Virus record (IMG/VR): IMGVR_UViG_3300028745_000006
Length of the DNA stretch: 64,000 nucleotides
Strand: one strand, 5' to 3'
Origin: an uncultured virus (IMG/VR IMGVR_UViG_3300028745_000006)
Taxonomy: Duplodnaviria > Heunggongvirae > Uroviricota > Caudoviricetes
Positions 8,601 to 58,418 of the stretch are shown here, piece after piece; positions within the stretch are counted from its first letter, which is position 1; each line of letters begins with the position of its first letter. The notes beneath the pieces are model-generated. The model worked only from the letters and a program-made list of their open reading frames with translations. It made no database searches and was not told the origin of the DNA. The translations under genes and the position numbers were made by a program.

Positions 8601-11600
8601 GGCGTTCCTGCGGCCTGCTCGCCGGTGAGCCCCTCGCGCAGCTCGAGCAGCTCGTCGCGGCGAGTCGTTTTCGCGAGACGCCCCGCGTAGGCGCCGTCGG
8701 GCTTGGTGAGCAGCGCGTCGAGACGAGCGACGACCGACGTGACGTCGCCTTCGCGGGGGCTTTGCCCCGTCAGGATGCTCTCGGCGACATGCAGCGCGGC
8801 CGGCGCACTCGTGGTCCCCTCGCAGAGGGCGTAGATTCGCTCTGCGAACGGACGAAGCGGGAGGTTCGCGCCGCCGTCCTTCAACCGGGCCACCAGGGTC
8901 TCGAAGGGCTGGCTAGCGGCTTCGTCGAGGCGCGCCGCTTCGCTCTCTCGCTTCCGTCGTTCGACGGCCCACGCCACCGACCGGAGCGTCGCCTGAGACG
9001 ACGCCAGAATCTTCTGGACGTCCGTCTTGGTGGTCATGTCCGGGAACTTGCCCAGCACGCTCGAGAGCGCTACCTCCATCGTGAACATTGCGTGGCGCAC
9101 GTCGTCGTCGCCGGAGTGGCGCATCTCGTTTGCGTGCTTCCGAACGTCGCTGCGGATCTCGTCGAAGTCATCGCTCGGACCCGCGCTCGCGCCGAGACTC
9201 TTCGCGAGCAGCTTCGTCGCCTCGTCCGCAGGGTGCGTCGTCACGACGGCCTCAACGGCGCGCCTCGCGGCATCCCGTGCGATCCCCACCTCCCCTGACT
9301 GCGCACGCACGTGGGATCCGTACGCCTGGAGCGCTTTCGTCACGACGTCTCGCTTGTGCCCCTCGGCCACGACGAAGGCCCCTTCGCTTTTCGACCAGCC
9401 CACGCCACCATTGTCGAGCGCCTTCAGGAAGCTCTGGGCTGCCTGGTCTTTTTTGTCGGCCTTGCTGGGCGGCCCGAACGGGGTCTTGACGACGACTTTT
9501 TTCCCGCGAAAATCCTCCTTCTCGGTCACCGAGTAGCCTTCGGGGACCTCGATGTTTTCCCACATCGCAGAGGGAGCCACCCGGCGCACCTCGACGTCGC
9601 CGTCCATCGTCACGACCTCGCGCGGGCGCACCGCCGCGCCGAACGAGATCGGTACCCACAGCCACGTCTCCGGCGCGCCGCCGGTGCGGTTGTCGCTCTG
9701 CTCGAACCAGCTCTCGCTGCCACGCTTGAAGATGGCGCTGATCGGGATCAGGCTCTCCCTGACGTCGTCGGGGTCGCGGTCGTCCGTGTAGATCCACGTG
9801 GTGACGGCTCCCGGGTACAGCTCCTTGACGCTCTTCACGCGCCGCAGACCCAGCGCCTTGCCGCGCGCTTCGACGACTTTCTGGCGCGCAGCGTCGACGG
9901 CCGCATCCTTGGAGACCAGACCCACAGGGGGCTCCGCCCCCTGCACCCCTGCCAGGGCCAGGGGCCCTGGACCCTGCGGCTCACGATGTTCGCGGGGGAG
10001 TGGCTTTGACGTCGGCGCCTCGGTCGTGACTTTGTCCTCTGCGACGATGGCGATGAGCTTGGGAGCAGGAGCCTCCACGCCGAGCGTGAGCGCGTCGGCG
10101 CGCACGCCTTCCGCCTTGGCGGCGGCCTCGAGCGCGCCGGCGTCGTTGCCGCCGGCCTCCGCCTGGAGCTCCTCGACCTTGAGCTTTACGAGCTCTTGCG
10201 CCACGCCCTCTGCGGCGGCGCCTTGGGTCAACGCGCCTGCGCGATCTTCGTTGGGCAGAGGCATCGCAGCGGGGTCGACCTTTCCTTGCGCGACGGCGAC
10301 GGCGCGGCACCGGGCAAGGAGGCGCTCTTGTTCCTCGTGCCCGCGCGCGATGGCTTGTTCTCCATCGCGGGTGAGGAGGATGCCGTCGCCGTGCTCAACT
10401 CGCACGGGGTCGATTCGTTCGGCGTAGCCCATCGCTCTGAGCCGGCCCCAGACGATCTGATCGAACTTGAGGGCCAGATCGGTCGCCACGACGCGAGAGC
10501 CCGTCGAAGGCATGCTGAAGTAGCCCTCTCCACCCTTCTGGGCCAGGAGCTGAAGCGCTTCGGCGACCTTCCCGCTGACCTGGGCCCCGACCGAGAAAGC
10601 CTTCTCGTTTCCCTTCTCGGTGAGAAACACGATGTCGGGCCCGCCGGCGACGCCGAACCGCGGCCGGATCGTGTAGAGGCTCTCGTCGGTAGCCAGCGCG
10701 CCGTCCGCCGGCGCCTCTTCGCGAGCGAAGCCCTGAAGGGTCATGGCAGGGGCGGCAGCCGTCATCGGTCGGACGGTGAACCCGGATTCGTCGTAGTAGG
10801 CGCCGTTGTAGAGCTTCCACTTGCGGACGGAGGCCATGTGTCGCTCTTCGGCGTAATTGGTGGCGCCCTGCTTGGCGTCTTTCAGCGTGCCGACGTTGCG
10901 AGCGATGACGCTCTTGTCGTAGAGCACCTCGTAGGGCCCCTTGGACACGAACGGTTGCTTCGTTTCCTCGTCGTACGACTGGGGTCCAACAGCGCGGCCG
11001 AGCATATCGTTGGCCTCACGGATGGCGACCTCGAGCTCGTTGGCGCTGGGGGGCGAGTCTCCGCCGACGTAGCGCTTCGACGACGGCGTGATGCGCGCGA
11101 TCTTCTCGAACTTCACGCGATCGTACGCCGTCCCGCCAACGGGGCATCTCGTCTCCCACGTGTCGAGAACCGCGTCGAGCTTCGCCGCAAGCGGCGCCTC
11201 CGCAGCGAGGTACTCGCGATCCTCATCCTCGTCGATCCCGGGCGCCTGCGCTTCTCCGGCGCGAACATCGTGAGCTGCGGGGTCCAGGGCCGAGGCCCTG
11301 GCGGGGGTGCCGGGGGCGGAGCCCCTGGCGCGGTTCTTCGGCCGTTCGATCTTCATCCCTCCGCCGATGTTGACCTCGAGCAGATCGACCAGCGCGAGAG
11401 GCTTGCCGTCGGGCGTTTGCGAGCGGACGACGCGGAAGGTGAACGCTCGCGCGAAGTCGATCCCGGAGCTGTCGGCGTCGACCTCGACCTTGAGCTCGTC
11501 GACAGGGGCGTCGCCGCGGGCGAGTTGAGCGGCGAGCTGGGTGTTCTCGACGAGCTTCTCGAGGCGGGCGCGGGGGGTTCCCAGCTTGGGGGTGATCGGG

Positions 11601-14600
11601 AAGCCGGGGTCCTCGTAGTAGTGGTCGAACGCGGAGGGCGTCATGGCGACGTGGAGCTTGCGGTGCTCGCCGACCTCGGTCATGTCGCGTGGGTCGAGCG
11701 TGGCCGACGCGCGATCCTGGAGCCTGGGCACGGAGGTCTCGCCGGCGAGCACGGTGACGAGCGGGTCGACGCCGGCGGGGAGCGCTCCAAGGGCGGCGAG
11801 CTCCGGGCTTCGTGAGGCGAGGTCCGCCCAGCGGTCGGCGCGAAGGTAGTCCCGCGCAGCGGCCTTGACGACGGCCTCGGGGTTGGACGAGCCAGCGCGC
11901 GCCAGGTACACGTCGCGGAGGCTTGATCCGCCACTGATATACTCGCCGCGCACGCCGTGGGCAGCGGAAGCAGGGACGTCTTCGAGCTCCTGGTAGGCTC
12001 GGGTGATAGCGGCGCGCTGGGCATCGTCGGTCACGCGCATACTTTCGGCCTTGGTGCGGAGGTAGCTCACGAGGGAGGCGAGGAGCTCGGGGGTTGCGGG
12101 CGTGAGCCTGCGGAGCCGGAGCTCTTCGGCGTTGTCGCTCCCGAGGAAGCGGCGCGCGGCGGCGGAGGCCAGGTCGATGGGCCGCGGGGCATCGGGGTTC
12201 ACGCCGGGGTCGTGAGAGACGAGCTGGAGGAGCCCTTCTTCGTTGAGGAGCTCGGCGATCTTGCCGGCGATGTTGGCGTTGCCGTACTGCTCGACGTAGG
12301 CGTCGAGGCGGCGCAGAAGATCCTCGCTCGGGGTGCCCCAGGTGGCGAGCTTGGCAGCGACCTTGGCGTGACCTGCGCCGGCCTTTTCGGCATCGGTGAA
12401 CCACTCGACGGTGTGCCCGCTCTTGGTGAGCTTGTTGGCCTCCGCCGTGTCGTCGTCGTTGACCTGGAGGACGTCCAGGAGGAGAGGTTGCCAGCCATTC
12501 TCTGCGCGGCCCGGCTGCGTCACCACGAGCCACCGGCGCTTGCTCGCGAGATACGCTTCTTTCTTGGCTTCGGACATCCGCGAGAGCTCGACCTGCTTCG
12601 GGTCGGTCGGGTCGTACGTGAAGATCTCGGACGGGAGCTTGTCGAGCGGATCGAGCTCCACGTGCTCTGCGACAGCGACGCGCAGCGCTTCGTCTCGCGC
12701 AGATTCGTTCACGCTCTCATCCTTCAGCCAGTATACGAGCGCACCACGGCGCGTCTCGGGCGTGGCGATCTTCGTCAGGAACGCATCGGGCTCCGTGTTG
12801 AGCTTCGAGTAGAGCCAGAACGTGTCGAGCGCATGGAAGCAGTCGTGAAGCGCCTTCGGCGTCCAGTGGAAAGGACCTTCTGCCTTGATCGTCTCGAGTT
12901 TCGTGAGCGCGATCGTGGCGCGCACCTCACGGAGAGCGTTCATGTCGCCGTTCGCGGCGCGCTCTACCTCGCGAGTCTGGGCGCCGTAGATTGCGCGCGC
13001 TGCGCGCTCTGCGGCTGCCTGACTCGAGAAGATGTCGAGCATCAGTCCAGTCGGTTCGTGCGACAGGACGCGCACGATGCCGCCAGGCTTGGAACCTGCG
13101 GGAGCGTGCACAAACAGGTTGCCCTCCCGTGCAAGAACAGGAACGCGGATTGCGGTTCCGGTTCCGCCGAGGATCCTCGCCATGTTCGCTGGAAGTGTCG
13201 CGTCGTACGGGAGGATCTTGGCGGAGCCGTTCATCGAGCCTCCCCCTGCATCTGCGGCGGGCTCGTGCGAACCGCCGATCTTCTCTTCTTCATTCGCTGG
13301 CATGAGGATCTCCGCGGCTTTCGTGATCGTGGACTCGTCGGGCATGTCGAGCCCAGCGTGGGTCGCGTCTCTTCGGATCGCTTCGGCCTCGGCGGCGGCC
13401 GTGGCAGAGCCGCCCTGCTCGGCGAGCTTCAGCGCGATGAGCTCCTCGGTCGCTCGCTGCCGCAGGTCGCTCGAAGGCTCCCCGCGAACGTCGTGAGCCG
13501 CGGGGTCCAGGGCTGAGGCCCTGGTGGAGGTTCCGGGGGCGGAGCTTTTGGCGCGGCTCTTCTTCTCGCGGGCGACGCCGAAGGGGCCGATCTGGCGCTT
13601 GTAGCGGTGTGCGAGCTCGACGCAGAGCCTCCACTCCTGGGGGGTGAGCCCGAGGTCGGCGCCCAGGAGGTAGGCCATGGAGTGACCGAGCCCGCCGTCG
13701 GACTGAGAGAAGCCCTCCGCGTTCTTTTCCTTGGCGTGGTCGGGATCGGCTTCGGCGACCGAGACGATGCCGTTGGCGGCCCAGGACTCCTCGTCGGTGA
13801 GGGGGCCGCGACGCACGTCGCTATCCGGCTCCTCTTCTTCGGGCTGGCTCTTGCGGCGCCGGGAGGTGGCCTCGGCGACGTAGCGCTTGATACGATCGGC
13901 CTGAGACGACTTGGCGCGCCCGGCGACTTCGCGCTCGGTGTCGCTCTGCGCGGCGGCCTCCTCGAGCGCCGCCGCGCGTGCGATGGCGATGGCTGGCCTG
14001 GCGTCGGCCTCGAGCTGGTCCCAGTCGACCTCGGCGAGCTTCGCTGGCGCGATGTGGATAACTCGCGCCGCATCGACGCTTTGGTCGATCAAGGACTCTT
14101 TCCCTGCGAGGATGGCGTCGATGCGCTGGTCGAGTCGGTGATCGGCGACGACGCGGGTGATCAGCACGCCGCGAGTCTGACCCAGGCGGTAGGCCCGATC
14201 CTCGGCCTGGTTGTTGAGCGAGGGGTTCCACTCCTGGTCGTTGAAAATGACGTTGGAGGCCCGCGTGAGGGTGATCGCAACGCCTCCGGCGCGGATCGTA
14301 CAGGCGACGCCCTTGTACTCGCCGCGTTGAAAAGCCTCTTCGATCGCGGTGCGTTTTTCGGCATCCGTGTCGCCGGTGATCGCTGCCCACCCGGGGCGCT
14401 TGCCCAGAAGGTCGACAGGGCCGCGGAAGGCGCTGAAGACCAGCACGGGCTCGTTCGCGGCCTCGTACTCCTTGACGAGCTCGAGGGTTGTCGCGAATTT
14501 TGCTTTGGCCAGGGCAGCGCGCGCAGCAGACAGCTCTCGGAAGGTGAGCTTGCTCTCCTCGAGCTTTTCGACGGCCTTCTCGAGATCGATGCCCTTTTGA

Positions 14601-16393
14601 CCAAGGATCGCAAGCGCTTCGTCGCCGGCCTTTGCCGTGGCCCGGTCGATCGGGGCAGAGACGACGCGGTATGTCTTGGGAGGGAGCTGCGGCAGCACCT
14701 CTTTCTTGATCCTGCGGAGCTGGACCCTCTGGAGACACTCGGCGACCTCGGGCTCGGGATCGCCCCAGTGCATGACATCCCACTCGTCTTTTTCTCCGTT
14801 GAAGAGACGAACGAAGTTGTCCCAGTTACCGAAGGCTTCGCGCTCGAGCCCGGCCGCAACGAGGACCGCCCAGAGCTCGGGCGGCTTGTTCTTCATGGGA
14901 GTCGCCGTGAGGATGAAGTTACGGCCCCCTCCTTCGCGCACCACGTCGCGCATCGCGTGGTATTTTTTCGTGCGTGTCGCCTTCCTGTTCGCGAGGTTGT
15001 GCCCCTCGTCAGCCACAAGGATTGTTCCGGGCCGCGCGCCGGCAGGAATGGGGAAGTGATCCTTCGCGCTCTTGATCACGAGCGAGGACTCGACAGCTCC
15101 GACGTTGAGCACCGTCGGGCCTGCCTTGCGGACAACGGCCAGGAAAGGCTTGGATGCCCACTCCTTTGGATCTGTGGTGAAGACGAGCGCGCCGTCTCGG
15201 TTAACGGTCCCGTTCCCAAGGAGATCTCCGGACGTGACAGAAGGGCTTTTCCCGTCGGTCGAGCCGTAGACGGAAAAGCTTTCACCGGGATGAACGACGC
15301 TGCCCTTTTTGGCCCGCTTGACGCTCGCGCTCTCGACGGACGTGATCTCGCTCGGGATCCACGTGACAGGGCCGTTCACGGTCGAAGAGATAGGGAGCAC
15401 CGTGTCGGGTACGTCGCCAGGAAGGATGTCGTAGTTGATCGCGACGATCTCGTTGGCTCCAGGCCAGCGGAAGCTGCCTTCTCCTTCCAGCACAGTCACG
15501 TGAAGGTCAGGGCGCCATCGCTTGGTCTCTCGCTGCCATACGCCCTTTGCGACGGCAGGACACACCACGACGACAGAGGCGTTGTCGGGAAGCATGGTGA
15601 GGATTTGGATCGTCTTGCCGAGCCCCATGTCGTCGGCGAGGAGCCCGCCTTGACGACTCGCGAGCCACGCCGATCCCTCCCGCTGATACTGGAACAGGCC
15701 GAGTCCTCGCTTTTTCAGAATCGCGTCGACCTCGTCCGCGCGTCTTTCTGCGCCGACGATGTTCAGAGCGCGCTCTTTCGCTCGCGCCTCGAGTCGCGTG
15801 GCCACCTCGGGGTCCACGTCGATCGCGAATCCCGATTTCGTGAGGCGCAGGAGGATCTCCGGCGCGAGGTCGACGCCGCTCCGCTGGCTCGCGGTCTCCC
15901 TGTCGTACCGAGACCCGCTGCACGCGTTCTGGTACGCGACGAACGTGTCGTCGAGGTGTGCCGCAGGGGCGATCGAGACCTCGCCCCCGACCATGCGCAC
16001 CAGGATCACGTCCTTCACCGCGGGAGCGTCGGCGGCGGCCTCCATTTTTTCGATCACGTCCGCCGGCGCATCGACCTCGAACCCTGCCTTTTCCAGATTC
16101 GCGATCGTGGCCGCCGCATCCTTCGGCTTGGCCCTCTGGCTCCGGGTGTTCTTGTCGTACCGACACCCCCCGCACGCAGCCTGGTACGCCGCGAACGCCT
16201 CGCTGCCTAGGAACCCCACCGGCGCAAAGGCCACTTCGACGCCGATGAACCGGACGCTGATCGCCTTGACGGCTGTCGCGGCAGGGTTGTGCTTTTTGCA
16301 GAAGATCTTGCGATCTTCTGGGCTGTAGCTTCCCTCTTCGGCGCCGACGCGGGCGCCGCAGGTGGCGCATTTGCCGGGGTATCGGTTGATCAT
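5699..16393 (-). CDS. Giant 3564-aa protein with N-terminal SNF2-family helicase
   Basis: LLADDMGLGKT (motif I), ADEGH (II), LTATP (III), EWNPSLNNQAEDRAYRLGQ (V/VI); N-terminal CxxC; about 2600 aa of unassigned C-terminus. Confidence 0.9.
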   Translation of the reverse strand: MINRYPGKCATCGARVGAEEGSYSPEDRKIFCKKHNPAATAVKAISVRFIGVEVAFAPVGFLGSEAFAAYQAACGGCRYDKNTRSQRAKPKDAAATIANLEKAGFEVDAPADVIEKMEAAADAPAVKDVILVRMVGGEVSIAPAAHLDDTFVAYQNACSGSRYDRETASQRSGVDLAPEILLRLTKSGFAIDVDPEVATRLEARAKERALNIVGAERRADEVDAILKKRGLGLFQYQREGSAWLASRQGGLLADDMGLGKTIQILTMLPDNASVVVVCPAVAKGVWQRETKRWRPDLHVTVLEGEGSFRWPGANEIVAINYDILPGDVPDTVLPISSTVNGPVTWIPSEITSVESASVKRAKKGSVVHPGESFSVYGSTDGKSPSVTSGDLLGNGTVNRDGALVFTTDPKEWASKPFLAVVRKAGPTVLNVGAVESSLVIKSAKDHFPIPAGARPGTILVADEGHNLANRKATRTKKYHAMRDVVREGGGRNFILTATPMKNKPPELWAVLVAAGLEREAFGNWDNFVRLFNGEKDEWDVMHWGDPEPEVAECLQRVQLRRIKKEVLPQLPPKTYRVVSAPIDRATAKAGDEALAILGQKGIDLEKAVEKLEESKLTFRELSAARAALAKAKFATTLELVKEYEAANEPVLVFSAFRGPVDLLGKRPGWAAITGDTDAEKRTAIEEAFQRGEYKGVACTIRAGGVAITLTRASNVIFNDQEWNPSLNNQAEDRAYRLGQTRGVLITRVVADHRLDQRIDAILAGKESLIDQSVDAARVIHIAPAKLAEVDWDQLEADARPAIAIARAAALEEAAAQSDTEREVAGRAKSSQADRIKRYVAEATSRRRKSQPEEEEPDSDVRRGPLTDEESWAANGIVSVAEADPDHAKEKNAEGFSQSDGGLGHSMAYLLGADLGLTPQEWRLCVELAHRYKRQIGPFGVAREKKSRAKSSAPGTSTRASALDPAAHDVRGEPSSDLRQRATEELIALKLAEQGGSATAAAEAEAIRRDATHAGLDMPDESTITKAAEILMPANEEEKIGGSHEPAADAGGGSMNGSAKILPYDATLPANMARILGGTGTAIRVPVLAREGNLFVHAPAGSKPGGIVRVLSHEPTGLMLDIFSSQAAAERAARAIYGAQTREVERAANGDMNALREVRATIALTKLETIKAEGPFHWTPKALHDCFHALDTFWLYSKLNTEPDAFLTKIATPETRRGALVYWLKDESVNESARDEALRVAVAEHVELDPLDKLPSEIFTYDPTDPKQVELSRMSEAKKEAYLASKRRWLVVTQPGRAENGWQPLLLDVLQVNDDDTAEANKLTKSGHTVEWFTDAEKAGAGHAKVAAKLATWGTPSEDLLRRLDAYVEQYGNANIAGKIAELLNEEGLLQLVSHDPGVNPDAPRPIDLASAAARRFLGSDNAEELRLRRLTPATPELLASLVSYLRTKAESMRVTDDAQRAAITRAYQELEDVPASAAHGVRGEYISGGSSLRDVYLARAGSSNPEAVVKAAARDYLRADRWADLASRSPELAALGALPAGVDPLVTVLAGETSVPRLQDRASATLDPRDMTEVGEHRKLHVAMTPSAFDHYYEDPGFPITPKLGTPRARLEKLVENTQLAAQLARGDAPVDELKVEVDADSSGIDFARAFTFRVVRSQTPDGKPLALVDLLEVNIGGGMKIERPKNRARGSAPGTPARASALDPAAHDVRAGEAQAPGIDEDEDREYLAAEAPLAAKLDAVLDTWETRCPVGGTAYDRVKFEKIARITPSSKRYVGGDSPPSANELEVAIREANDMLGRAVGPQSYDEETKQPFVSKGPYEVLYDKSVIARNVGTLKDAKQGATNYAEERHMASVRKWKLYNGAYYDESGFTVRPMTAAAPAMTLQGFAREEAPADGALATDESLYTIRPRFGVAGGPDIVFLTEKGNEKAFSVGAQVSGKVAEALQLLAQKGGEGYFSMPSTGSRVVATDLALKFDQIVWGRLRAMGYAERIDPVRVEHGDGILLTRDGEQAIARGHEEQERLLARCRAVAVAQGKVDPAAMPLPNEDRAGALTQGAAAEGVAQELVKLKVEELQAEAGGNDAGALEAAAKAEGVRADALTLGVEAPAPKLIAIVAEDKVTTEAPTSKPLPREHREPQGPGPLALAGVQGAEPPVGLVSKDAAVDAARQKVVEARGKALGLRRVKSVKELYPGAVTTWIYTDDRDPDDVRESLIPISAIFKRGSESWFEQSDNRTGGAPETWLWVPISFGAAVRPREVVTMDGDVEVRRVAPSAMWENIEVPEGYSVTEKEDFRGKKVVVKTPFGPPSKADKKDQAAQSFLKALDNGGVGWSKSEGAFVVAEGHKRDVVTKALQAYGSHVRAQSGEVGIARDAARRAVEAVVTTHPADEATKLLAKSLGASAGPSDDFDEIRSDVRKHANEMRHSGDDDVRHAMFTMEVALSSVLGKFPDMTTKTDVQKILASSQATLRSVAWAVERRKRESEAARLDEAASQPFETLVARLKDGGANLPLRPFAERIYALCEGTTSAPAALHVAESILTGQSPREGDVTSVVARLDALLTKPDGAYAGRLAKTTRRDELLELREGLTGEQAAGTPDDRATALMRSAAKKASEKRGDPHDFTDTAQGLAAVALSTGWPESDPRLDPYRKPFNTPLGNAYADMWHDPLAHMKASEVTVEQIARAMDGIATTWKEPYAGRHYRDHENPYDLRELSMIEGWRSQLAQRIKSQRIRRGTSAFDDFVLIEAPRLFRAVTKKIVSNLETIRAVTAKSIADGQQSLQRLQRDADQDSLKTSLRLALHDALETKESTGAAKAREESAAYYAGRLASAKEEIASLEMDLATPRDPEAMALEAVASVEELKPYAAAMAMPQAERDLAEGRARVAFIKRSTLPKDASIEEGEIRIRFDGKVSMVRSLYRAGDYAVHETPGEPSDVEAAEKFSVTHEPTGLSSGKFATKNAAAHYVDVLNSPAVAEMGRAYFRGDVNDFPEVTKAAGAAIREGKSAEQAARIALDSVAGSTASAGAPATTPSVDPLESKIDAKVLDLLRRHGPMEPFKLAEALIKVGSRDRSKNSASEERLIRAGAIVVDRSAPNIVYKLASDAKEGIAKTALDAVAQGAPESVLLEAEKEIEKIEYAGAVEARLPSPPANAVTPVELYAMARAAGEAGKELREWEESDEIHAHLEALRNARVRVDSRALEAAYHDGVRTTWKSVWTTAQAGYDGMGTKTVEDCGMWHGKALRRVAINPDHLDWQMRRYSSGIDGSWMEDPRVEDQRNATKIENERVRQQEHDARRKEGLGWIVTVSDSMLDGTDENWEAWNAHGITWDDARAEKVRRSADRDAKAKEVEWARCLAIVHEGVSLIDPGASSRPGIYGGHVGGRDPHVWCTIKIVRGWPAEDPTKANVVEENGDIVADLPTVAAWLAEGRIRVAGPEDHVPPLAVFKRLGHRDLERVKPYEVDGGVVWAGRGGRGGFGELLVLDMQGHLVRKKSVLEAVDIEMANARSTKDKQRQLAELAVAGRLNEAKAPEGTVYAFAGDRRDAGAIHAVRVVETVGDFAITEE
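9927..9994 (+). repeat. 70-bp palindromic repeat, in-frame in the giant protein
   Basis: GGGGGCTCCGCCCCC..CCAGGGCC/GGCCCTGG..CTCACGATGTTCGC; read as REHREPQGPGPLALAGVQGAEPP. Confidence 0.9.
11261..11330 (-). repeat. 70-bp palindromic repeat, in-frame in the giant protein
   Basis: Read as ARGSAPGTPARASALDPAAHDVR. Confidence 0.95.
13483..13553 (-). repeat. 70-bp palindromic repeat, in-frame in the giant protein
   Basis: Read as AKSSAPGTSTRASALDPAAHDVR. Confidence 0.9.
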
Positions 16394-20182: not shown

Positions 20183-20189
20183 GGGCTAC

Positions 20190-20232
20190 AGAATGGGCCC
20201 GCTGCCCAAGGTTGTCAAGATAGTTTTCTTGA
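20190..20232 (-). promoter_or_regulatory. Promoter plus TCAAGA-N6-TCTTGA palindrome
   Basis: TCAAGA TAGTTT TCTTGA at 20215-20232 overlapping minus-strand TTGACA. Confidence 0.75.
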
Positions 20233-21113: not shown

Positions 21114-21207
21114 GGCGTCTCCTTATCGGCGCAGCTCATCAGCTTTTGCGAATGCTCACGTTCGCCACATGCCTTGCCTGTAGCGCGTTGGCTTTTTGTT
21201 TTCGGGC

Positions 21208-21672: not shown

Positions 21673-21727
21673 TGACCGATGTGCGTGCCGGTTCTTCGCG
21701 CTGACTGCTGCGCCAGCGCGCTTTTGG

Positions 21728-21801
21728 CGCGAACATCGTGAGCTGCGGGTCCAGGGAGGGCCTAGGCCCTGGCGGGGGTGCCGGGGGCGGAGCCCCTGGC
21801 G
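21728..21801 (-). repeat. 70-bp repeat supplying the C-terminus and stop of the HTH gene
   Basis: Gene ends ARGSAPGTPARA-TAG inside the repeat. Confidence 0.9.
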
Positions 21802-22274
21802 CTCTTGCTCTTCACGATCTTCTCGAGCGTCTTGCGGTGAGCGGGGGGGAGCGTGCCGTGGCGAGCGCGCGAGAGAACGCTCTCGTGGATCTCGAGGTGG
21901 ACGGCGAGCTCGGCCACGGTGCGGAACCCCAGGCACTGGCGGGCGCGCTCGATCAGCTTGCCGTCAGCAGACGTAGGGGACGCGCCGGTGCGGCCGGGCA
22001 TGGCGCGGCTGCGGAGAAGGGGCAGGAGCGAGCGCGCCTCGTCTTCGGGAAAGACCTCCGACCATCCTTCTTGGAGGGCGGCGTCGTCGGGGATCCATGC
22101 TCCAGGCCGGGCATCGCCCTCGCGATGAACGGCGTACCTGGAGCCGGTGCGAACCAGGCGAAAGAGAGGGATCTGGAGTGGCAGAGGGCTCGTCATTGCC
22201 TCCCACGCAGAAGGTGGCGCGGTGGGCGCAGGAGCCGGTTCGACGAGGATGGTGGTGCGGAGGTCCCTCTTCAT
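21762..22274 (-). CDS. Protein with C-terminal HTH-like domain
   Basis: LIERARQCLGFRTVAELAVHLEIHESVLSRARHG. Confidence 0.6.
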   Translation of the reverse strand: MKRDLRTTILVEPAPAPTAPPSAWEAMTSPLPLQIPLFRLVRTGSRYAVHREGDARPGAWIPDDAALQEGWSEVFPEDEARSLLPLLRSRAMPGRTGASPTSADGKLIERARQCLGFRTVAELAVHLEIHESVLSRARHGTLPPAHRKTLEKIVKSKSARGSAPGTPARA

Positions 22275-25423: not shown

Positions 25424-25780
25424 ATGTTCACACGGCCGAAGGCTGACTTCACGAGTCCCGACGTTCTCACCCTGCTGGAGCGAGATCTTCTTGACGCTTC
25501 GTGGCGATCGCATCCAGACGCGTCGGTGCGAATTCCTCGCGGTGAGCACATGGGGGTTCATGTCCGCCCCTTTGCGCTGATCGAATGGGGCGGCACGCCG
25601 GAAGGCTTCGCGGCGCGCCAGCTTGCTGCCTACGAGCTCGGGACGCTACGCGCTCGCGTCTTCACGATCAACGAGGCCGGGCGGAAGGTCCGTGCAGAGC
25701 TCCTCGCGGAGGGCAAGATCCGCGATACGCCGCGAGACGCAACTCGGCCAGCTCATGATTGTTCTCCGCGAACGCCGTGA
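25424..25780 (+). CDS. Hypothetical protein whose stop lies inside a repeat copy
   Basis: 118 aa, FTINEAGRK wing-like motif. Confidence 0.5.
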   Translation: MFTRPKADFTSPDVLTLLERDLLDASWRSHPDASVRIPRGEHMGVHVRPFALIEWGGTPEGFAARQLAAYELGTLRARVFTINEAGRKVRAELLAEGKIRDTPRDATRPAHDCSPRTP

Positions 25781-25837
25781 GCCGCGGGGTCCAGGGCCCT
25801 GGCCCTGGCGGAGGTGCCGGGGGCAGAGCCCCTGGCG
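25767..25837 (-). repeat. 70-bp repeat between convergent genes
   Basis: GCGAACGCCGTGAGC..CCAGGGCC-CT-GGCCCTGG..GGGGGCAGAGCCCCTG. Confidence 0.9.
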
Positions 25838-25840
25838 GGT

Positions 25841-26311
25841 TCACGACTTCGCGGGCTCTTCGCGCATCTCGCGCTGGAGGGCGAAGAAGGTGCGGTGGAG
25901 CGTCTGAGCGTTGAAGGTGAGGCGCGTCACGATGGTGGCGAACCTGGCCATGGTAGCAAGATCGTCTTCCGACATTGCATCGGACAGAGAGGTCATGCCC
26001 CTGTCGAGGATGCTGAACATAGAGGCGACATGCTCGATGAGTGCGGCGATGCCTGAGCGCGTGAGGACCTCGTCGTCGTCCATGGCGCTGAAGATCGCCA
26101 TGCGCTCGGACGCAGCGCTCGCCCATGGCCTGCACGGAGCCGACAGGTGAGTGAGAGCCGCGCGTGCCTCGTCGAGGTCGATGCGCACGGCGCGGAGGAG
26201 CCTCACCTGCCGCTTGGATCGACAGTGCATTTTCCGGTAGGCCGCGTAGGTGACCGCGGCAAGGAAGATGACGCCGGAAAGGAAGTAGAGAAAGCCGTCG
26301 AAGATCTTCAT
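25841..26311 (-). CDS. Membrane-anchored hypothetical protein
   Basis: N-terminal TM helix, AGGAG RBS. Confidence 0.6.
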   Translation of the reverse strand: MKIFDGFLYFLSGVIFLAAVTYAAYRKMHCRSKRQVRLLRAVRIDLDEARAALTHLSAPCRPWASAASERMAIFSAMDDDEVLTRSGIAALIEHVASMFSILDRGMTSLSDAMSEDDLATMARFATIVTRLTFNAQTLHRTFFALQREMREEPAKS

Positions 26312-26799: not shown

Positions 26800-26807
26800 G
26801 TCTTCCT

Positions 26808-26871
26808 CGCGAACGGCAGTGAGCTGAAGGGTCGAGGGCTCAGGCCCTGGCGGTGGCAGAGCCCCTGGCGC
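26808..26871 (-). repeat. Internally deleted repeat copy supplying the BtpA stop
   Basis: Gene ends ARGSATARA-TGA within the repeat. Confidence 0.8.
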
Positions 26872-27592
26872 GGCTCTCGATCCCGTGGATCGCGTCAGCC
26901 GTGGCGCGGACGCGAGACGCGTCGAGAATGCCGTGGGCCGTCTCGAGGCTGGACGCGATGATGAAGACGTCCGTGAGGTCGAGGAACAGGGCCACGTTTT
27001 CCGGACCTACGCCCGACGCGATGGCGAGGGGCGCGTCGGGGCCAAGGGCCTCGCGCATGGCGGCGATCTTGGCGCGCGTCGGAGGCGCCCCGGTGCGCGG
27101 TCCACTGGTGGTGACGATGTCGACGCCCGAGTCGCGAGCGAGCCTGGCGGTGGCACCCAGCGCCTCGTGGGGCACCCCGCGGCCGCCCTTGAACGCGATG
27201 CCGCCGAAGTAGAGGCCGTCCCAGGCGAAGTCCTGGCGCAAGCGGCGAAACTCGGAGGCGTGGAGAAGGGTGTGTAGCCTGTCATGGTCCCTCACGACCG
27301 CATCGTCACACCAGAGGCCGTGCACGAGAGAGCTCCCGATGGCGCCAAGAGACTCGAGCGCGGTGAGGCCCAGCAGGTTCACGCCGACGAAAGATACGCC
27401 GGCGCGCACCGCGCCGTCTGCGAGCTGCACGACGTGGTCGCTGGAGAGATCACCATGCGAGATCAGAAAGACCCCGTCCGCTCCGTTCGTCATGGCGACG
27501 TGAACGGCCTCCTGGGCCTGTCGCGCCTCCAGGCAGTGGACAACGACCAGGAAGACTTTCGGCCGGCTGAAGCGCTGAAGAAGTGCGTTCAT
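26840..27592 (-). CDS. BtpA/SgcQ-like TIM-barrel protein
   Basis: GADGVFLI, GVNLL, TTSGPRTG..P, ASGVGPENV. Confidence 0.7.
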   Translation of the reverse strand: MNALLQRFSRPKVFLVVVHCLEARQAQEAVHVAMTNGADGVFLISHGDLSSDHVVQLADGAVRAGVSFVGVNLLGLTALESLGAIGSSLVHGLWCDDAVVRDHDRLHTLLHASEFRRLRQDFAWDGLYFGGIAFKGGRGVPHEALGATARLARDSGVDIVTTSGPRTGAPPTRAKIAAMREALGPDAPLAIASGVGPENVALFLDLTDVFIIASSLETAHGILDASRVRATADAIHGIESRARGSATARA

Positions 27593-30235: not shown

Positions 30236-30412
30236 TCCCGGCGGCAACCAAGACGGCCGCGGTGGAGCTCGACGAGCGCAGCCTTCGCGTCCTCGATACG
30301 GCCGCGGTCGCGCTCAAGGCGTGGATGCTCTCAGGAAAGCTTCCGGACGTGTCGTGGATGAGCGAGCAGGACTGGGCGTTTGCGGAAAAGTTCTTCGAAG
30401 GATCGAAAGACG

Positions 30413-31552
30413 ATGACAACTGAAGATTGTGCGGTCGTCGATGCCGCTGACTACTCGCGCGACAGTGCGCCATCCGAGGTGCAGAGCGTGTGCGGCGCGT
30501 GCGGGGGCCTCGGGAAGCTCCGGGTCATGGACGACGACGGCAAGCGCCGCGCTTCCGACGGCTGGCGGAAGTGCCTCGACTGCAACGGAACGGGACAGGT
30601 ACTCGACGGCGCCGCGACGGATGACGGCGCAGTCGGCGCGGCCGAGGGCGCAAAATCTCTCTCCAGCGAACGCAGTGAGCCCGGGGTCCAGGGCTCAGGC
30701 CCTGGCGCGGGGGTCGGGGGCGCGCAGCCCCCGAGCGGTCTCGAGCTCGTCCGCCTGGCGGTCGAGGACGGCTGCCTCGAGAACCAGGCAGCGCTGGACA
30801 TGGTGCCCAGGACGACGTGGATCGCCACGGTGACCCCGGATCGTAGGAGCCCCGGCGGCCTTACCCGCCGCTTCTGGAACAAGGGGATGCGCGGCTGGTA
30901 CGAGCGCCCTGGCGTGGTCGTGCCGGGTGACGTTCTCGAGATGGCCGGAGATCTCAGGAACCCGCGGAAAAAATTCGCTGGCCGCGATCGTGTGTACTGG
31001 TTTGTGACGAGTGTCTCCGCGGCATGCCTTGAGGTCGTGTCGCTTGGAACGACCCCGCCTGGGCGCAGGCGGATTGAACGCGTTCGCGACGAGGTTGCGC
31101 GCGCGTACGCCAAGGATGTCTCGGACGTCGTAGGCGCAGTGGTAGTGCACGAGGGGCGAGTTCTTTTGACGCAGCGCCCCGCCGGCAAGACGTTCGCGTT
31201 CGCCTGGGAGTTTCCCGGCGGGAAGGTCGAGCCTGAAGAGGAGCCGCGCGAAGCGCTCCGGCGTGAGCTTGGAGAAGAGATCGAGTGCGCTGACGCCGAG
31301 GTTGAGGAGCTCCCGATCTGGTCGGGGCACGTCCACTCGGCCGGCGTGACGGTGTCGTTCTACCTGGCGACGCTTCGTGGCGTGCCCGTGCCGAAGGAGG
31401 GCCAAGGCATCGGTTGGTTCGCGCCCGAGGAGCTCGAGAGGCAGACCCTCACGCCGGGCAACCAAGTCGCCTTGCCCGCCGTGCTCGGGTACCTGACCGC
31501 GCGCTGCTTGCCGGTCGTCCGCAGCAGCTTGATCGATCTCGATATTCCTTAG
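30413..31552 (+). CDS. Multidomain protein: CxxCxGxG zinc finger, repeat-derived linker, C-terminal Nudix hydrolase
   Basis: CGACGGLG/CLDCNGTG; Nudix box WEFPGGKVEPEEEPREALRRELGEE. Confidence 0.85.
   Translation: MTTEDCAVVDAADYSRDSAPSEVQSVCGACGGLGKLRVMDDDGKRRASDGWRKCLDCNGTGQVLDGAATDDGAVGAAEGAKSLSSERSEPGVQGSGPGAGVGGAQPPSGLELVRLAVEDGCLENQAALDMVPRTTWIATVTPDRRSPGGLTRRFWNKGMRGWYERPGVVVPGDVLEMAGDLRNPRKKFAGRDRVYWFVTSVSAACLEVVSLGTTPPGRRRIERVRDEVARAYAKDVSDVVGAVVVHEGRVLLTQRPAGKTFAFAWEFPGGKVEPEEEPREALRRELGEEIECADAEVEELPIWSGHVHSAGVTVSFYLATLRGVPVPKEGQGIGWFAPEELERQTLTPGNQVALPAVLGYLTARCLPVVRSSLIDLDIP
30666..30733 (-). repeat. 70-bp repeat in-frame in the Nudix fusion
   Basis: Read as SERSEPGVQGSGPGAGVGGAQPP. 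Confidence 0.9.
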
Positions 31553-31680: not shown

Positions 31681-32736
31681 ATGTCGTACAGCGATCTCAA
31701 GAAAGACGGAATGAGTGCGGGGCCAGGGTCCAACGCGGTGGACCCCCTCCGGCTGTTCGTGATCGGTCTCGACGGCGTGGGGGTCACGGAGGAGGATCGG
31801 ATCGACTGGCTGAAGGACATCTTCCCGAAGCTCTCGGCCCGGATCGATGCGCTCCGCGACGTCCGCGCCTGCGAGGAGATCGAGGAGACCAAGATTGTCT
31901 GCTTCCGTCCCGAGGAGGCGCGCCCGGTCATCTACCTGAACGCTCACTGCTCGTTCCCCGAGGGGGAGGGGTACGGGCAGTGGTCCGGGCTGAAGTTCCT
32001 TCCGGTCGTCACGGGCCGGCAGACGACCAAGGTCTACCGCGCGCTGGGGGCGAGGCGCGAAGCGAAGGGCGCGCCGGCGCTCAAGATGCTGGCGCGCAGC
32101 CGTCTCTTCGAGACCGATCTCGAGCTCGAGGAGGCGGTCGCCATCGAGAACTCCAGGATCCTCGACTGGAAGCCCTCGGCGCGCGCCTGGACGGCTCATC
32201 GTCTGATGGAGAAGGGCTCCCCCGAGGAGCACGTGATGGCCTGGGTCGGCATCAAGAGCCGGGGCGGGCTGAAGAAGCTGATCTCTATCTTGAAGTGCAG
32301 TCCGACCGTGCTGAAGGCGCTCGACGACCGAAGGATCGTCCAGCGGGTCGCGCTCGACGTCGCCAAGAAGGGCGACCACGACAAGCAGGACGTGGAGCTG
32401 GAGAAGCGCTTCGCCGCCGCCAAGGGGCAGAAGGGGCACACTCGCTCCCGGACGATGAACGGCGTGACTCCCGGCACCCCCTCGCCGGTGCGGCCCGGTC
32501 GCATCCGGGAGATGGTCAAGCTCCTGACGGCTCGCGCCGCCACGCCGAACGCCCCCAAGGATCCGCAGCGCGACGACGCGCTCATTCTCCTGCGCGCGAT
32601 CGCAGGCGAGGCCAGCGCGGTCGCCTTGCTCCCGGCCAGCGTTCGCGAGGTTCTCGCGATCGTCCAGGCCCCCAAGAAGCCCGCTCTGCCGCCCGTCGCG
32701 CCGTCTCTCCCGGGACACGTCGCCGACGCCGAGTGA
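31681..32736 (+). CDS. ParB-like protein
   Basis: VVTGRQT (degenerate GxxR box), AIENSR, HTH-like region, ILKCSPTVLKALDDRRI. Confidence 0.6.
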   Translation: MSYSDLKKDGMSAGPGSNAVDPLRLFVIGLDGVGVTEEDRIDWLKDIFPKLSARIDALRDVRACEEIEETKIVCFRPEEARPVIYLNAHCSFPEGEGYGQWSGLKFLPVVTGRQTTKVYRALGARREAKGAPALKMLARSRLFETDLELEEAVAIENSRILDWKPSARAWTAHRLMEKGSPEEHVMAWVGIKSRGGLKKLISILKCSPTVLKALDDRRIVQRVALDVAKKGDHDKQDVELEKRFAAAKGQKGHTRSRTMNGVTPGTPSPVRPGRIREMVKLLTARAATPNAPKDPQRDDALILLRAIAGEASAVALLPASVREVLAIVQAPKKPALPPVAPSLPGHVADAE

Positions 32737-32745
32737 AGATCGCGC

Positions 32746-32809
32746 AGGGGCTCTGCCCCTGCACCCCGCCAGGGCCTGGGCCCTGGACCCTGTAGCTCAC
32801 GATGTTCGC
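32746..32809 (+). repeat. 70-bp repeat, intergenic
   Basis: AGGGGCTCTGCCCCT..CCAGGGCC-TG-GGCCCTGG..CTCACGATGTTCGC. Confidence 0.9.
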
Positions 32810-33153
32810 ATCGGAGGAGTTCACCATGACGAAGATCGATGTGCACACGAAGGTCAAGACCAAGGTCTATGCGGGGAAGCTCCGCGCGCGACTCGCGGAG
32901 CTGAAGAAGAGGCGCCCGGCGGAGCTCGAGAAGTACAGGAAGGACATCGCGCTGTGGAAGAAGGCGGGTAATGGCTGTCCTAGGACACGACCTAGGACAA
33001 TCCCCCTCGGATCAGCCGGAGGCGCGGCCCCGTGAATTGTGAGGTTTTCGACAACTCGGGGCCCGCCTCCGGGGCAGCCTGCGGCCGGGAACCCACGAAG
33101 ATTCAGTCGCTCTCTCTAGACTTTCTCGGCCTGGCTGAAGTAGCGTAGGTCGC

Positions 33154-34519: not shown

Positions 34520-35220
34520 ACGCGTCGCACTTCGAGCTCTGCGCGCTCCTGAGCGCTGCCTTCGCGGGCCCGCTTCTCGCCCGGCGCGCGCCGCTGTGCG
34601 AGCCGCATGCGCGCGTGGCGACGGCGTGTCTCGCGCTCTACCTGGTGCGGGCGCTGCGGCCGCATGACGTGTCGCTAGGCGTCTTTCTGTTCGTCGTGTG
34701 GCCGGGGCTCGCCGGCGCGCTCGTGGTGCACGTCCTGCCCATGGATCCGCCAGCTTCGCCGGAGGCTCCCCTCGCGAACGCAGTGAGCTGCGGGGCCGAG
34801 GGCCCAGGCCCTGGCCCAGGGTTTGGGGGCGGGCAGCCCCCGAGCTTCTTGAGCTCTCGGGTTATGTGCGTGCTCGCAAGCTTCATGGTCGCGGCAACGG
34901 CCCTTGCGACGGAGGGGCATCGCCTGTGCGTGGTGTGGCCGTGGCCGCTGTTTACGGCGCAGGCGGCGTCTGTCGTGCTTGCGGTTGAGGCGTGGGGGAG
35001 ACGAGCGAGGAGCGGGATCTCGAGATCAGAGCGGTGGGCGCAGGTGGGGGCGGTGGTGTTGCCTGCGGGGACGCTTGCCGACCTGGCGACGGTCTGGGCA
35101 GGGGCTCCGGATACCGTTCGGGCGGTACTTGGAGGGGTGACGTGGCTCCTGTTTGGTGCGACCATGGCGGCATGTTCGAGGACTGCGCAGACCCCACCGG
35201 CGGCACGGGCGGGTGGATAG
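34516..35220 (+). CDS. Multi-pass membrane protein with an in-frame repeat in a loop
   Basis: GTGA coupling; several hydrophobic segments interrupted by ANAVSCGAEGPGPGPGFGGGQPP. Confidence 0.55.
   Translation: MNASHFELCALLSAAFAGPLLARRAPLCEPHARVATACLALYLVRALRPHDVSLGVFLFVVWPGLAGALVVHVLPMDPPASPEAPLANAVSCGAEGPGPGPGFGGGQPPSFLSSRVMCVLASFMVAATALATEGHRLCVVWPWPLFTAQAASVVLAVEAWGRRARSGISRSERWAQVGAVVLPAGTLADLATVWAGAPDTVRAVLGGVTWLLFGATMAACSRTAQTPPAARAGG
34773..34843 (-). repeat. 70-bp repeat in-frame in the membrane protein
   Basis: GCGAACGCAGTGAGC..AGGGCC-CA-GGCCCT..GGGGGCGGGCAGCCCCC. Confidence 0.85.
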
Positions 35221-40323: not shown

Positions 40324-40366
40324 AGGTTCGACGACGGCCCACCGTCGGGGATCCCGGGGTGGGACA

Positions 40367-40397
40367 CTGGTGGGGGTGCCGGGGGCGAAGCCCCTGG
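40367..40397 (-). repeat. Half copy of the 70-bp repeat
   Basis: CTGGTGGGGGTGCCGGGGGCGAAGCCCCTGG. Confidence 0.75.
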
Positions 40398-40443
40398 TAC
40401 GATCCCGGTGTCAGATCTCGTGCGGCTCACGCGTCGTAGGTCC

Positions 40444-41025: not shown

Positions 41026-41032
41026 CGGACCG

Positions 41033-41106
41033 CTCGGGGGCTGCGCGCCCCCGACCCCCGCGCCAGGGCCTACCGGCCCTGGACCCTGCGGCTCACGATG
41101 TTCGCG
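41033..41106 (+). repeat. 70-bp repeat, intergenic
   Basis: GGGGGCTGCGCGCCCCC..CCAGGGCC-TACC-GGCCCTGG..CTCACGATGTTCGC. Confidence 0.9.
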
Positions 41107-41136
41107 AAGAGGGCCTTCGGCGAGCTGAAATGGAGG

Positions 41137-44178: not shown

Positions 44179-44222
44179 TTTCTTGGAGTGTCCTAGGACA
44201 GCCGCACGCCGTACTCGTTCCC

Positions 44223-44290
44223 CGCGAACATCGTGAGCCGCGGGGTCCAGGGCCCAGGCCCTGGCGGGGGTGTCGGGGGCGGAGCCCCTG
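44223..44290 (-). repeat. 70-bp repeat directly after the dnaE stop
   Basis: Full consensus copy ending 6 nt from the stop codon. Confidence 0.95.
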
Positions 44291-44296
44291 ACGCTT

Positions 44297-47566
<3,270 letters not shown>

Positions 47567-47598
47567 GGCGAAGGCTCCTGTAGAAGTCCAGAGAGCGT

Positions 47599-47667
47599 CA
47601 GGGGCTTCGCCCCCGACACCCCCACCAGGGCCAAAGGGCCCTGGACCCTACGGCTCACGATGTTCGC
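47599..47667 (+). repeat. 70-bp repeat directly upstream of dnaE
   Basis: Near reverse complement of the 44223 copy. Confidence 0.95.
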
Positions 47668-47789
47668 AAAGGAGAGGGCCGCCGTCTTATGGGTCTTTTG
47701 CACTTTTCACGTGCGATGGGGCGCCTTCGAAGTGTCTGTGTCATCCATGCGATCGCGATCAGTCTCCACGCTTGCCGCCTTTTTGTGCG

Positions 47790-58039: not shown

Positions 58040-58348
58040 CGTCAGTCATCCTCTAGGCATTTTGCCATCATCCGACCATCCTGCGCTCTTGCGCGCGCCT
58101 GCGCCGTCTACCGCGCCGCGCGCCAACTCCCGCCCGGACGGAGACGCCCTTCGTCACCACGACAATAGGCCGTTCGTCCCGCCACGCCCGCTTGAACGCG
58201 GCGCGGAACGATGCATCTCGCAGCTCGTCGCCGAGCCATGCGCCGGCGGCAGCCTGCCTACGTGCGGTCTTGCTCACTTCGGTCATTCTGCACTTATAGC
58301 CCATCCGGCACAGGCCGGTCTTCACCGTGTCGCTTTCGCTCGTCTCCT

Positions 58349-58418
58349 GCGAACATCGTGAGCTGAAGGGTCCAGGGCCCTTTGGCCCTGGCGGGGGTGC
58401 AGGGGGCGGAGCCCCCTG
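58349..58418 (-). repeat. 70-bp repeat directly after the DinG-like gene stop
   Basis: Full consensus copy. Confidence 0.95.

Follow-up and report, generated by a model that had tools for sequence, protein, structure and literature searches.

The 64,000-nucleotide stretch of the uncultured virus record IMGVR_UViG_3300028745_000006 (IMG/VR; the whole stretch is referred to as the window) harbors a family of short G+C-rich repeats with a unit length of about 85 bases, each consisting of a head and two hairpins. Copies of this repeat reside between genes and, without breaking the frame, within open reading frames (ORFs). A first-pass annotation made from the sequence alone had described the repeat and proposed a non-autonomous element that generates new peptide loops in a phage-like genome. 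We confirmed that the repeat family is real, and comparison with homologous sequences showed that it interrupts the conserved dnaE gene in frame at two linker sites. The interpretation of the first-pass annotation was also the best supported one: the copies probably constitute a lineage-restricted family of small selfish elements resembling the repetitive extragenic palindromes (REPs) and the Rickettsia palindromic elements (RPEs), which reside in a large phage-like genome and are translated when they lie in genes. The origin of the copies by transposition, the mobility and non-autonomy of the element, the mechanism of its movement and its translation are inferred.

The palindromic core CCAGGGCC-N(2-6)-GGCCCTGG occurred 11 times in the window, as compared to no occurrence in 100 shuffles. 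Copies with this core pattern were used to build an nhmmer profile, which was scanned over the window, and a covariance model (R1) was constructed from 17 of the 18 window copies, leaving out the half copy. Profile and covariance model alike disclosed 18 copies between positions 9917 and 58426. Sixteen of them are complete, while the copy at 46552-46625 exhibits a degraded hairpin 1 and the one at 40338-40405 is a hairpin-2 half. Together with an additional hairpin-2 fragment at approximately 46365-46396, which lies outside the 18 model matches, these numbers fit the about 19 copies, two of them halves, reported previously. On other pieces of the same genome the covariance model identified nine further copies at seven sites, so that 27 copies are known. 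The copies of the window and their main carrier genes are listed below; bit scores are those of the covariance model, and sense and antisense refer to the direction in which a copy is read.

Copy 1, 9917..10000, minus strand: in the giant SNF2 ORF, sense-read; 91.2 bits; high third-position G+C on both sides.
Copy 2, 11254..11336, plus strand: in the giant SNF2 ORF, antisense-read in the common frame ending ..AAHDVR; 90.3 bits.
Copy 3, 13477..13559, plus strand: in the giant SNF2 ORF, antisense-read, frame as in copy 2; 77 bits.
Copy 4, 21722..21807, plus strand: gene boundary; the hairpin-1 loop holds the TAG stop of ORF 21762-22808 (minus).
Copy 5, 25761..25843, plus strand: gene boundary; adjoins the TGA of the upstream ORF (minus); the head is followed by GGAG and then ATG.
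Copy 6, 26802..26876, plus strand: gene boundary; linker shortened; the hairpin-1 loop holds the TGA stop of ORF 26840-27592 (minus); the head is followed by GAGGAAG and then ATG.
Copy 7, 30659..30743, plus strand: in the Nudix fusion ORF 30380-31552 (plus), between the N-terminal CxxC part and the Nudix domain.
Copy 8, 32735..32816, minus strand: gene boundary; adjoins the TGA of ORF 31681-32736 (plus); the head is followed by GGAGGAG and then ATG.
Copy 9, 34767..34851, plus strand: in the hydrophobic ORF 33982-35220 (plus).
Copy 10, 40338..40405, plus strand: partial, hairpin-1 3' arm and hairpin 2; upstream of ORF 40408-41025 (plus); 29 bits, E 5e-4.
Copy 11, 41027..41112, minus strand: gene boundary; one base past the TAG of ORF 40408-41025 (plus).
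Copy 12, 44217..44299, plus strand: tail end falls on the TGA stop of dnaE; 99.9 bits.
Copy 13, 45367..45454, minus strand: in dnaE insert B, sense-read; half of a head-to-head doublet.
Copy 14, 45484..45566, plus strand: in dnaE insert B, antisense-read; other half of the doublet, 29-base spacer.
Hairpin-2-like fragment, 46365..46396, minus strand: adjoins copy 15, in dnaE insert A.
Copy 15, 46397..46477, minus strand: in dnaE insert A, sense-read.
Copy 16, 46552..46625, plus strand: in dnaE insert A, antisense-read; hairpin 1 degraded; head-to-head with copy 15, 74-base spacer; 46.3 bits.
Copy 17, 47590..47674, minus strand: intergenic; tail 23 bases upstream of the dnaE ATG.
Copy 18, 58342..58426, plus strand: gene boundary; 2 bases past the stop of the intein-bearing helicase ORF 58429-61779 (minus).
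Giant ORF, 5699..16393, minus strand: 3564 amino acids, N-terminal SNF2-type helicase (Pfam; PHROG phrog_62); copies 1, 2 and 3 correspond to residues 2132-2159, 1686-1714 and 945-973, respectively.
Nudix (MutT-like) fusion ORF, 30380..31552, plus strand: carries copy 7 (Pfam).
dnaE, 44297..47566, minus strand: 1089 amino acids with PHP, Pol III alpha, finger and HHH domains (Pfam); inserts at residues 319-404 and 675-728.

On the G-rich strand, the unit starts with a pyrimidine-rich flank, followed by the head GCGAAC-NNN-GTGAGC, the motif YGCGGGGT, hairpin 1, a linker, hairpin 2, GCGSGG and a second pyrimidine-rich flank. Hairpin 1 is nearly invariant and composed of CCAGGGCC, a loop of 2-4 bases and GGCCCTGG. 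It is separated by the G-rich linker CGGGGGTGY from hairpin 2, which consists of CGGGGGC, a loop of 3-5 bases and GCCCCYG. The head is able to form a mini-hairpin, and the unit has two or three hairpins. Comparison of the copies reproduced the earlier observation that the stems are conserved while the loops vary. In the alignment of the 27 copies, 98.5% of the paired cells were complementary and eight pairs were changed on both sides, values reached by none of 500 shuffles, whereas slid controls paired at only 23-53%; this alignment had been fitted to the covariance model, which somewhat favours the structure. Most compensatory changes are located at the base of hairpin 2 and support this hairpin, while hairpin 1 is too invariant for covariation to argue for or against pairing. 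The G-rich strand folded better in 26 of the 27 copies, which is partly a general property of G-rich strands. Pairwise identities ranged from 0.16 (fragments) to 0.93 with a median of 0.69. Nearest neighbours crossed between coding and intergenic copies, indicating that one family serves both settings.

The closest relatives of the dnaE product, obtained by a search of 5.8 billion proteins, are the cellular DnaE proteins of Polyangiaceae, Sorangium and Chondromyces. The alignment comprised 42 sequences, namely the query and 41 homologues chosen from 120 listed ones (top ranks and named ones); P0086 was excluded since it looks frameshifted. The query shares 67-81% identity with the 41 homologues. 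Only two runs of at least five query residues were occupied in less than 10% of them, residues 319-404 (86 amino acids) and 675-728 (54 amino acids). The former run corresponds to copies 16 and 15 and the hairpin-2 fragment, the latter to copies 14 and 13, and all 41 aligned homologues lack the element at these sites. Homologues without the insert define both sites, and the proposed in-frame interruption of DnaE, a highly conserved protein, was borne out. An alignment with Escherichia coli Pol III alpha (4jom) yielded three blocks (query 4-309 with 6-305, 406-671 with 317-579, and 733-1069 with 585-907) and broke only at the inserts, where query residues 310-405 face 11 residues and residues 672-732 face five. 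The inserts thus stand in for linkers of 11 and five residues; both sit at short variable linkers between the alignment blocks, which is the only indication as to whether they occupy the protein surface and leave the fold undisturbed, as expected of RPE peptides. The alignment columns with the catalytic motifs around D491/D493 and D646 do not vary, and the 1089 codons contain neither a stop nor a frameshift.

The 3'-end of dnaE is marked by the element as well. Its stop lies exactly at the tail of copy 12, while the cellular homologues continue into the oligonucleotide-binding (OB) domain; the C-terminal OB part is absent from the window gene. Moreover, the gene (44217-47674) is bracketed by the inverted copies 12 and 17, whose tails face it. 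With its high identity to cellular proteins, its cut before the OB domain and the bracketing copies, dnaE looks like a gene recently acquired from a cell.

Nine copies and one fragment of the window reside in ORFs: three copies in the giant SNF2 ORF, four together with the fragment in dnaE, and one each in the Nudix ORF and in ORF 33982-35220. Ten ORF copies, five of them in dnaE, had been counted before. In the giant ORF, the Nudix ORF and ORF 33982-35220 the frame is unbroken, and coding-type third-position G+C flanks the copies on both sides. The first-pass annotation had assigned copy 9 to a membrane protein. Its position within ORF 33982-35220 was verified, but the third-position G+C of this ORF looks coding only at approximately 34400-35000. 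Outside the window, five copies were detected in three open frames, two each in L017 and L024 (protein P0121) and one in L013, and each of these frames runs through the whole locus of 630 bases. Altogether, 14 of the 27 known copies are located in open frames, in both orientations, and all 14 keep the frame.

The insert peptides quoted in the first-pass annotation could be reproduced, and coding copies read in sense and in antisense were found, as had been stated. All six antisense-read coding copies share one codon phase (..SAPGTPARASALDPAAHDVR..), though all three antisense frames are open; the chance of such a shared phase is (1/3)^5 = 0.004. The eight sense-read copies are distributed four and four across two open frames, and the third sense frame holds a TGA. 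Unless the peptide is produced, the antisense frame preference would have no rationale, and we take it as indirect evidence for translation. We also considered stop-free frames as a sign of adaptation. In the consensus, inspected by hand, five of six frames are open, where approximately 0.69 per frame is expected by chance at 75% G+C (hand estimate); the idea was rejected, as G+C-rich DNA is mostly open by expectation. Copies are depleted in coding DNA (9 of 18 versus 80% coding sequence, p = 0.004). Those in coding DNA are concentrated in the giant ORF and dnaE (7 of 9 versus a share of 27%, p = 0.002), a concentration that weakens to about 0.02 if each doublet is counted as one event (hand calculation).

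Nine window copies are situated at gene boundaries, not six as had been reported for the intergenic copies next to gene ends. Seven of the nine, all of them antisense to the transcript, adjoin the upstream gene's stop codon or overlap with it. Two genes even terminate at a stop within the hairpin-1 loop (copies 4 and 6). At three of the seven copies, the purine-rich flank of the head is GGAG-like and followed by ATG within about 2-10 bases. The intrinsic-terminator consensus was matched by none of the six copies in the region 20000-39999, nor did a T run follow them; terminator-like sites in this region were found at chance level (14 versus 13.0 expected). Downstream of some element copies, a promoter-like motif recurs (an A-rich run, then AATCTTGAC), for which 14 matches with at most one mismatch were obtained versus 6.95 expected, a number reached by no shuffle; sites include 21654-21662 (minus), 44160-44168 (minus), and also 2888, 20214 and 50361.

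All four pairs of copies closer than 200 bases are arranged head-to-head (0.004), with spacers of 29, 74, 73 and 133 bases. In dnaE insert B, the two copies of the doublet together form a single long hairpin (-77.6 kcal/mol, z -5.5). By eye the spacers are dissimilar and the one of 133 bases resembles native protein, suggesting that at least some doublets may be two separate insertions. Ends and flanks were compared for 25 of the 27 copies; the two others, the half copy and the truncated one of L022, are without an anchor. Pyrimidines make up 78% of the ten bases preceding the head and 70% of the tail flank. CTC or TCC was present in 22 of 25 head flanks (background 25%), at a spacing varying between 0 and 3 bases. 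GTGA(G/A)C occurs in all 25 copies, 8 bases from the hairpin-1 stem, while the tag GTAG was found in two of 25 copies and CGTC in the head of two of 25. Taken together, the ends, hairpins, flank motif and dimers would fit REP/REPIN elements and single-strand transposition of the IS200/IS605 kind better than a MITE (miniature inverted-repeat transposable element) moved by cut-and-paste.

In our sequence scans, the complete, head-bearing element was found in this genome only. The exact head pattern gave no match in IMG/VR, and the pattern of head plus hairpin 1 gave one chance match, without palindrome, in 185,579 species genomes; both pattern scans require exact matches. Thirty metagenome loci were matched, all belonging to one numbered series. 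Thirteen of them match the window itself; 13 of 14 other loci given to the covariance model carry a copy, whereas L019 does not. None of 34 DnaE-bearing loci of IMG/VR was matched by the model, and blastn of the element against the phage collection remained without a match. An Rfam scan revealed no family matching the element, only a transfer-messenger RNA (tmRNA), in agreement with the earlier statement that the repeat was not recognized as a described family. The 74-residue peptide of insert B matched one protein at E <=0.001 among 1.84 billion representatives, P0121 of L024, which belongs to the same genome. A word-based search of the 5.8-billion set with residues 140-262 of P0121 recovered only P0121 among 4435 candidates.

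Relatives of the hairpins without the head were also found outside this genome. A double hairpin that has nearly identical stems but no head (35.7 bits) lies between genes on two plasmids of Acidibrevibacterium fodinaquatile. On these plasmids of an acidophilic member of the Acetobacteraceae (L119 1480-1562, NZ_CP029178.1; also NZ_CP029179.1) it is located between an integrase gene and a gene for a WGR-domain protein. Head-less double hairpins, with one to three weaker copies each, were also detected in four of five IMG/VR records examined. The hairpin-1 pattern was found at seven loci on four contigs of IMG/VR and the joined two-hairpin pattern at one. On the viral contig G002, another conserved sequence adjoins the double hairpin upstream. 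Thus, the hairpin module may be older and wider than the head-bearing family. A hairpin-1-like palindrome was also seen in open frames of L121, L125, L127, L124 and L130 (IMG/VR G002, G003 and G005), with coding-type third-position G+C downstream; four of the five frames contain ..SRASGPG.., while L130 differs. By these sequences, in-frame hairpins may be wider among these phages. A blastn search of the G004 and G002 loci for the host of the relatives yielded nothing useful.

The window has a G+C content of 62-69% and contains mostly small genes without known families, besides genes for an HNH endonuclease, a PP2C phosphatase, helix-turn-helix regulators and a helicase with Hint (intein-type) domains. 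It contains no structural phage gene, which is why phage-like is the careful word. P0121, the element-bearing protein of the same genome, is recorded on a contig of 154,533 bases, giving a genome size of at least 154 kb. A tmRNA gene is located at 37352-37705 (plus; Rfam RF00023, 101 bits), for which ARAGORN gave the tag peptide ANDNALLDFDLTG*. In the helicase (ORF 58429-61779, minus, 1116 amino acids), Hom_end_hint spans residues 67-165 and PT-HINT residues 458-539 (Pfam); with these domains, a replication gene of this genome holds a second type of selfish insert.

The element is in its place in 13 metagenome loci, which come from four contig sets of different numbering and match the window at 99.7-100%. 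Window positions 1 to approximately 49400 are spanned by one contig of 90.7 kb, and the surroundings of 58 kb by another of 56.8 kb. The dnaE stretch is present in 24 DNA runs of peat metagenomes, and contigs of the runs X2 and X13 bridge copies 8 and 9. From the matching loci and the bridging contigs we concluded that the element is no assembly artefact. Joints between copies and letter variants of the loops in run contigs look like cross-mapping of repeats. In the dominant strain of run X2, positions 40513-42715, including copy 11, are replaced by 2116 other letters, and positions 40300-40371, at the half copy 10, by 105 other letters. The region 40300-42715 is thus a variable cassette adjoining element copies.

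Under the selfish REP/RPE-like reading, which we consider likely, copies would have spread to many sites in both orientations, often as head-to-head doublets like those of REPINs. The most plausible route would be a single-stranded DNA intermediate whose hairpins are recognized by an enzyme supplied in trans. Between genes, insertions would persist mainly just behind stop codons, and inside genes only where the frame is kept and the linker is tolerant. Genic copies would be translated into stretches of about 25-30 residues rich in Gly, Pro and Ala.

Several results speak against this reading. Proof of in-frame insertion by homologues is confined to the dnaE alignment. For the giant ORF no homologue spanning copies 1-3 was found, as there was no IMG/VR relative of this region and no tblastn match in 50,697 phage records, and none of the 141 relatives of the Nudix ORF covers the N-terminal part with copy 7. 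Likewise, no homologue was found to extend across copy 9 in ORF 33982-35220. The hot spot in dnaE taken alone reaches only about p = 0.07 if each doublet counts as one event (hand calculation). No Y1/RAYT (REP-associated tyrosine transposase) or other transposase domain was identified in 82 + 61 predicted proteins of the window, nor was a transposase domain present in its 248 further open frames of at least 110 amino acids. TnpA and TnpB genes were likewise not found in the window, and the sole nuclease seen there is the HNH gene at 33448-33900; that no transposase is visible had already been noted in the first-pass annotation. A Y1 transposase was also found in none of five related viral records, while positive controls were found in six of 14 genomes. 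Terminal inverted repeats are lacking; the first 12 bases and the reverse-complemented last 12 had on average 3.5 matches. The signal for a duplication of the flanks is weak (own pairs 4.40 versus cross pairs 3.94, permutation p = 0.006) and could be explained by subfamily structure, and no fixed duplication length emerges. The best duplication-like flank score was that of copy 2 (8.0 among 25 copies; by eye, eight of nine bases match). No site was encountered in both states, empty and filled. The element is present in all 13 shared loci, which had, however, been fetched by its own pattern. Nor did the contigs of four runs over 27801-47800 exhibit a clean joint removing a copy. Finally, the siting at stop codons in one orientation and the head-less intergenic hairpins would also fit a regulatory role.

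Such a role is the basis of a rival explanation, according to which the repeat is primarily a functional intercistronic cassette whose hairpins stabilize, process or terminate RNA, whose end is followed by a GGAG resembling a ribosome-binding site, and which the phage reuses between genes and spreads by recombination, the genic copies being accidental by-products. The boundary copies described above agree with this proposal, as seven of nine lie antisense at the upstream stop codon and three of these provide GGAG-like bases and an ATG. So do the plasmid relative, which is located approximately 30 bases past the end of a gene and has the same orientation relative to it, and the G002 double hairpin with its different upstream sequence. 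Yet 14 of 27 copies reside inside open frames in both orientations, the orientation bias at boundaries is by itself weak (7 of 9, p = 0.09), the six copies in 20000-39999 do not resemble terminators, and the G-rich strand folds better although the boundary transcripts carry the C-rich one. We therefore regard the cassette as an unlikely explanation, albeit one that is compatible with the selfish reading. There is also only a small chance that the phage is a bystander and that a host REP family entered with host DNA or was moved by a host enzyme of the RAYT type. The host-like dnaE between inverted copies and the double hairpin on the Acidibrevibacterium plasmids point in this direction, and REPs and RAYTs are cellular (PMC3337134). 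Against a host origin stand the species genomes with their one chance match to an exact pattern, the 41 DnaE homologues devoid of inserts, and the insert peptide, which led in both protein searches to the same-genome protein only.

That the inserts are not translated, be it through removal from the mRNA, through skipping by the ribosome or because the carrier genes are decaying pseudogenes, appears very improbable. The missing C-terminal part of dnaE would be in line with decay, but all 14 coding copies keep the frame, the six antisense copies keep one of three open frames, as expected only if the peptide is made, and DnaE is uninterrupted over 1089 codons with intact catalytic columns at its high identity to cellular homologues. 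Furthermore, no known RNA family, self-splicing introns included, was matched. Intein, intron and ribosomal-bypass readings were tried and rejected, the unit being short, always in frame and without match to an RNA family. A more speculative variant, to which we give little credence, is a phage-borne, coding-compatible parasite without a transposase of its own that is copied by template switching or hairpin-primed synthesis on the phage replication machinery. It would explain the pile-up in dnaE, the SNF2 helicase and the Nudix gene, the head-to-head doublets, the bracketing of the host-like dnaE and the fact that no transposase was seen. If it were true, the bracketing would make the element a vehicle for gene capture, and the fixed antisense frame would mark peptides that the phage tolerates or uses.

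Densely packed as this viral genome is, its replicative polymerase would tolerate about 140 extra residues, and no fewer than six other genes hold inserts too. Provided that the inserts are translated, the system could serve as a small natural experiment on the way in which insertions are absorbed by proteins and as a marker by which phage lineages in peat can be traced, and it would give the chance to find a REP-moving enzyme in a genome of about 150 kb, not of several megabases. The same-frame rule and the head-to-head doublets would then be concrete points at which the mechanism could be tested.

In-frame selfish palindromes are textbook knowledge for Rickettsia. Miniature elements derived from IS200/IS605, such as the palindrome-associated transposable elements (PATEs), possess asymmetric ends and hairpins near both ends and are moved by TnpA in trans. 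The element described here shares with them the asymmetric ends, the hairpins near both ends, the lack of terminal inverted repeats and of a clear target duplication, and a short motif class flanking one end (CTC/TCC, 22 of 25). Unlike PATEs, the spacing of this motif varies by 0-3 bases, the tail flank is pyrimidine-rich too, and TnpA and TnpB are missing in the window. Classical MITEs differ by their terminal inverted repeats (here a mean of 3.5 out of 12). The GC clusters of yeast and the double-hairpin elements of fungal mitochondria are likewise short and G+C-rich, lie in genes and spacers and have no known enzyme of their own; double-hairpin elements of Allomyces mitochondria were reportedly described by Paquin, Laforest and Lang in 2000. 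They resemble the present family in being short and G+C-rich, some with two hairpins, within genes and spacers of a small, dense genome, but their carriers are organelle genomes and no sequence relation was seen. Among phages, dispersed repeats include the promoter-stem-loop cassettes of the T4 type and, in mycobacteriophages, mobile elements (MPMEs, about 440 bases) and stoperators (about 13 bases). These are dispersed, short and located at gene boundaries with an orientation bias, as are copies here; to our knowledge, none of them has been reported as an in-frame insert in conserved proteins. Our searches of open-access papers did not turn up any report of an element of this sort in a phage genome.

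The comparison with RPEs and REP/REPINs, which the first-pass annotation had drawn, proved apt (PMC10969869, PMC3733652). RPEs are in-frame inserts in many Rickettsia genes (PMC10969869), and a CGTC end tag is reported for them (PMC3733652). By these descriptions, both families are dispersed palindromic repeats lying between genes and, in frame, in unrelated conserved protein genes, both add a family-specific peptide, and for RPEs too no transposase is known. The likeness was judged by description, and no sequence likeness to any record searched was found. Differences are the carrier, a phage-like genome instead of an alphaproteobacterial chromosome, the very G+C-rich unit of about 85 bases with head and two hairpins versus about 100-150 bases in RPEs, and the rarity of CGTC (2 of 25 copies).

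The likeness to REPs is similarly mixed. REPs occur inside genes in several species, many in replication and global repair genes, including DnaE2 genes and the DnaE of R. conorii, and typically form head-to-head or tail-to-tail dimers (Di Nocera et al., PMC3733652); a REPIN is an inverted REP pair with a spacer (PMC3337134). The present element has in common with them the G+C-rich hairpins, the head-to-head dimers with a spacer, foldable as one hairpin, and the intragenic members in replication and repair genes, here dnaE, an SNF2 helicase and a MutT-like Nudix gene. It deviates by its GTAG tag, present in only 2 of 25 copies, instead of which GTGA(G/A)C precedes hairpin 1 by 8 bases, by its length (about 85 versus 20-40 bases), by the lack of a RAYT in the 64-kb window of a genome of at least 154 kb, and by its siting, since nine of the 18 copies in the window and five of the nine others are not extragenic but inside open frames. 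The element thus works like a REP or RPE, but we do not file it as a member of either, as the tags are rare and the enzyme is missing in the window. Its kind is known, intragenic REPs in replication and repair genes, DnaE included, being already in print for bacteria (PMC3733652). What is new is the occurrence in a phage-like genome, the build of three parts, the rule of one shared frame and the accumulation in a single polymerase gene.

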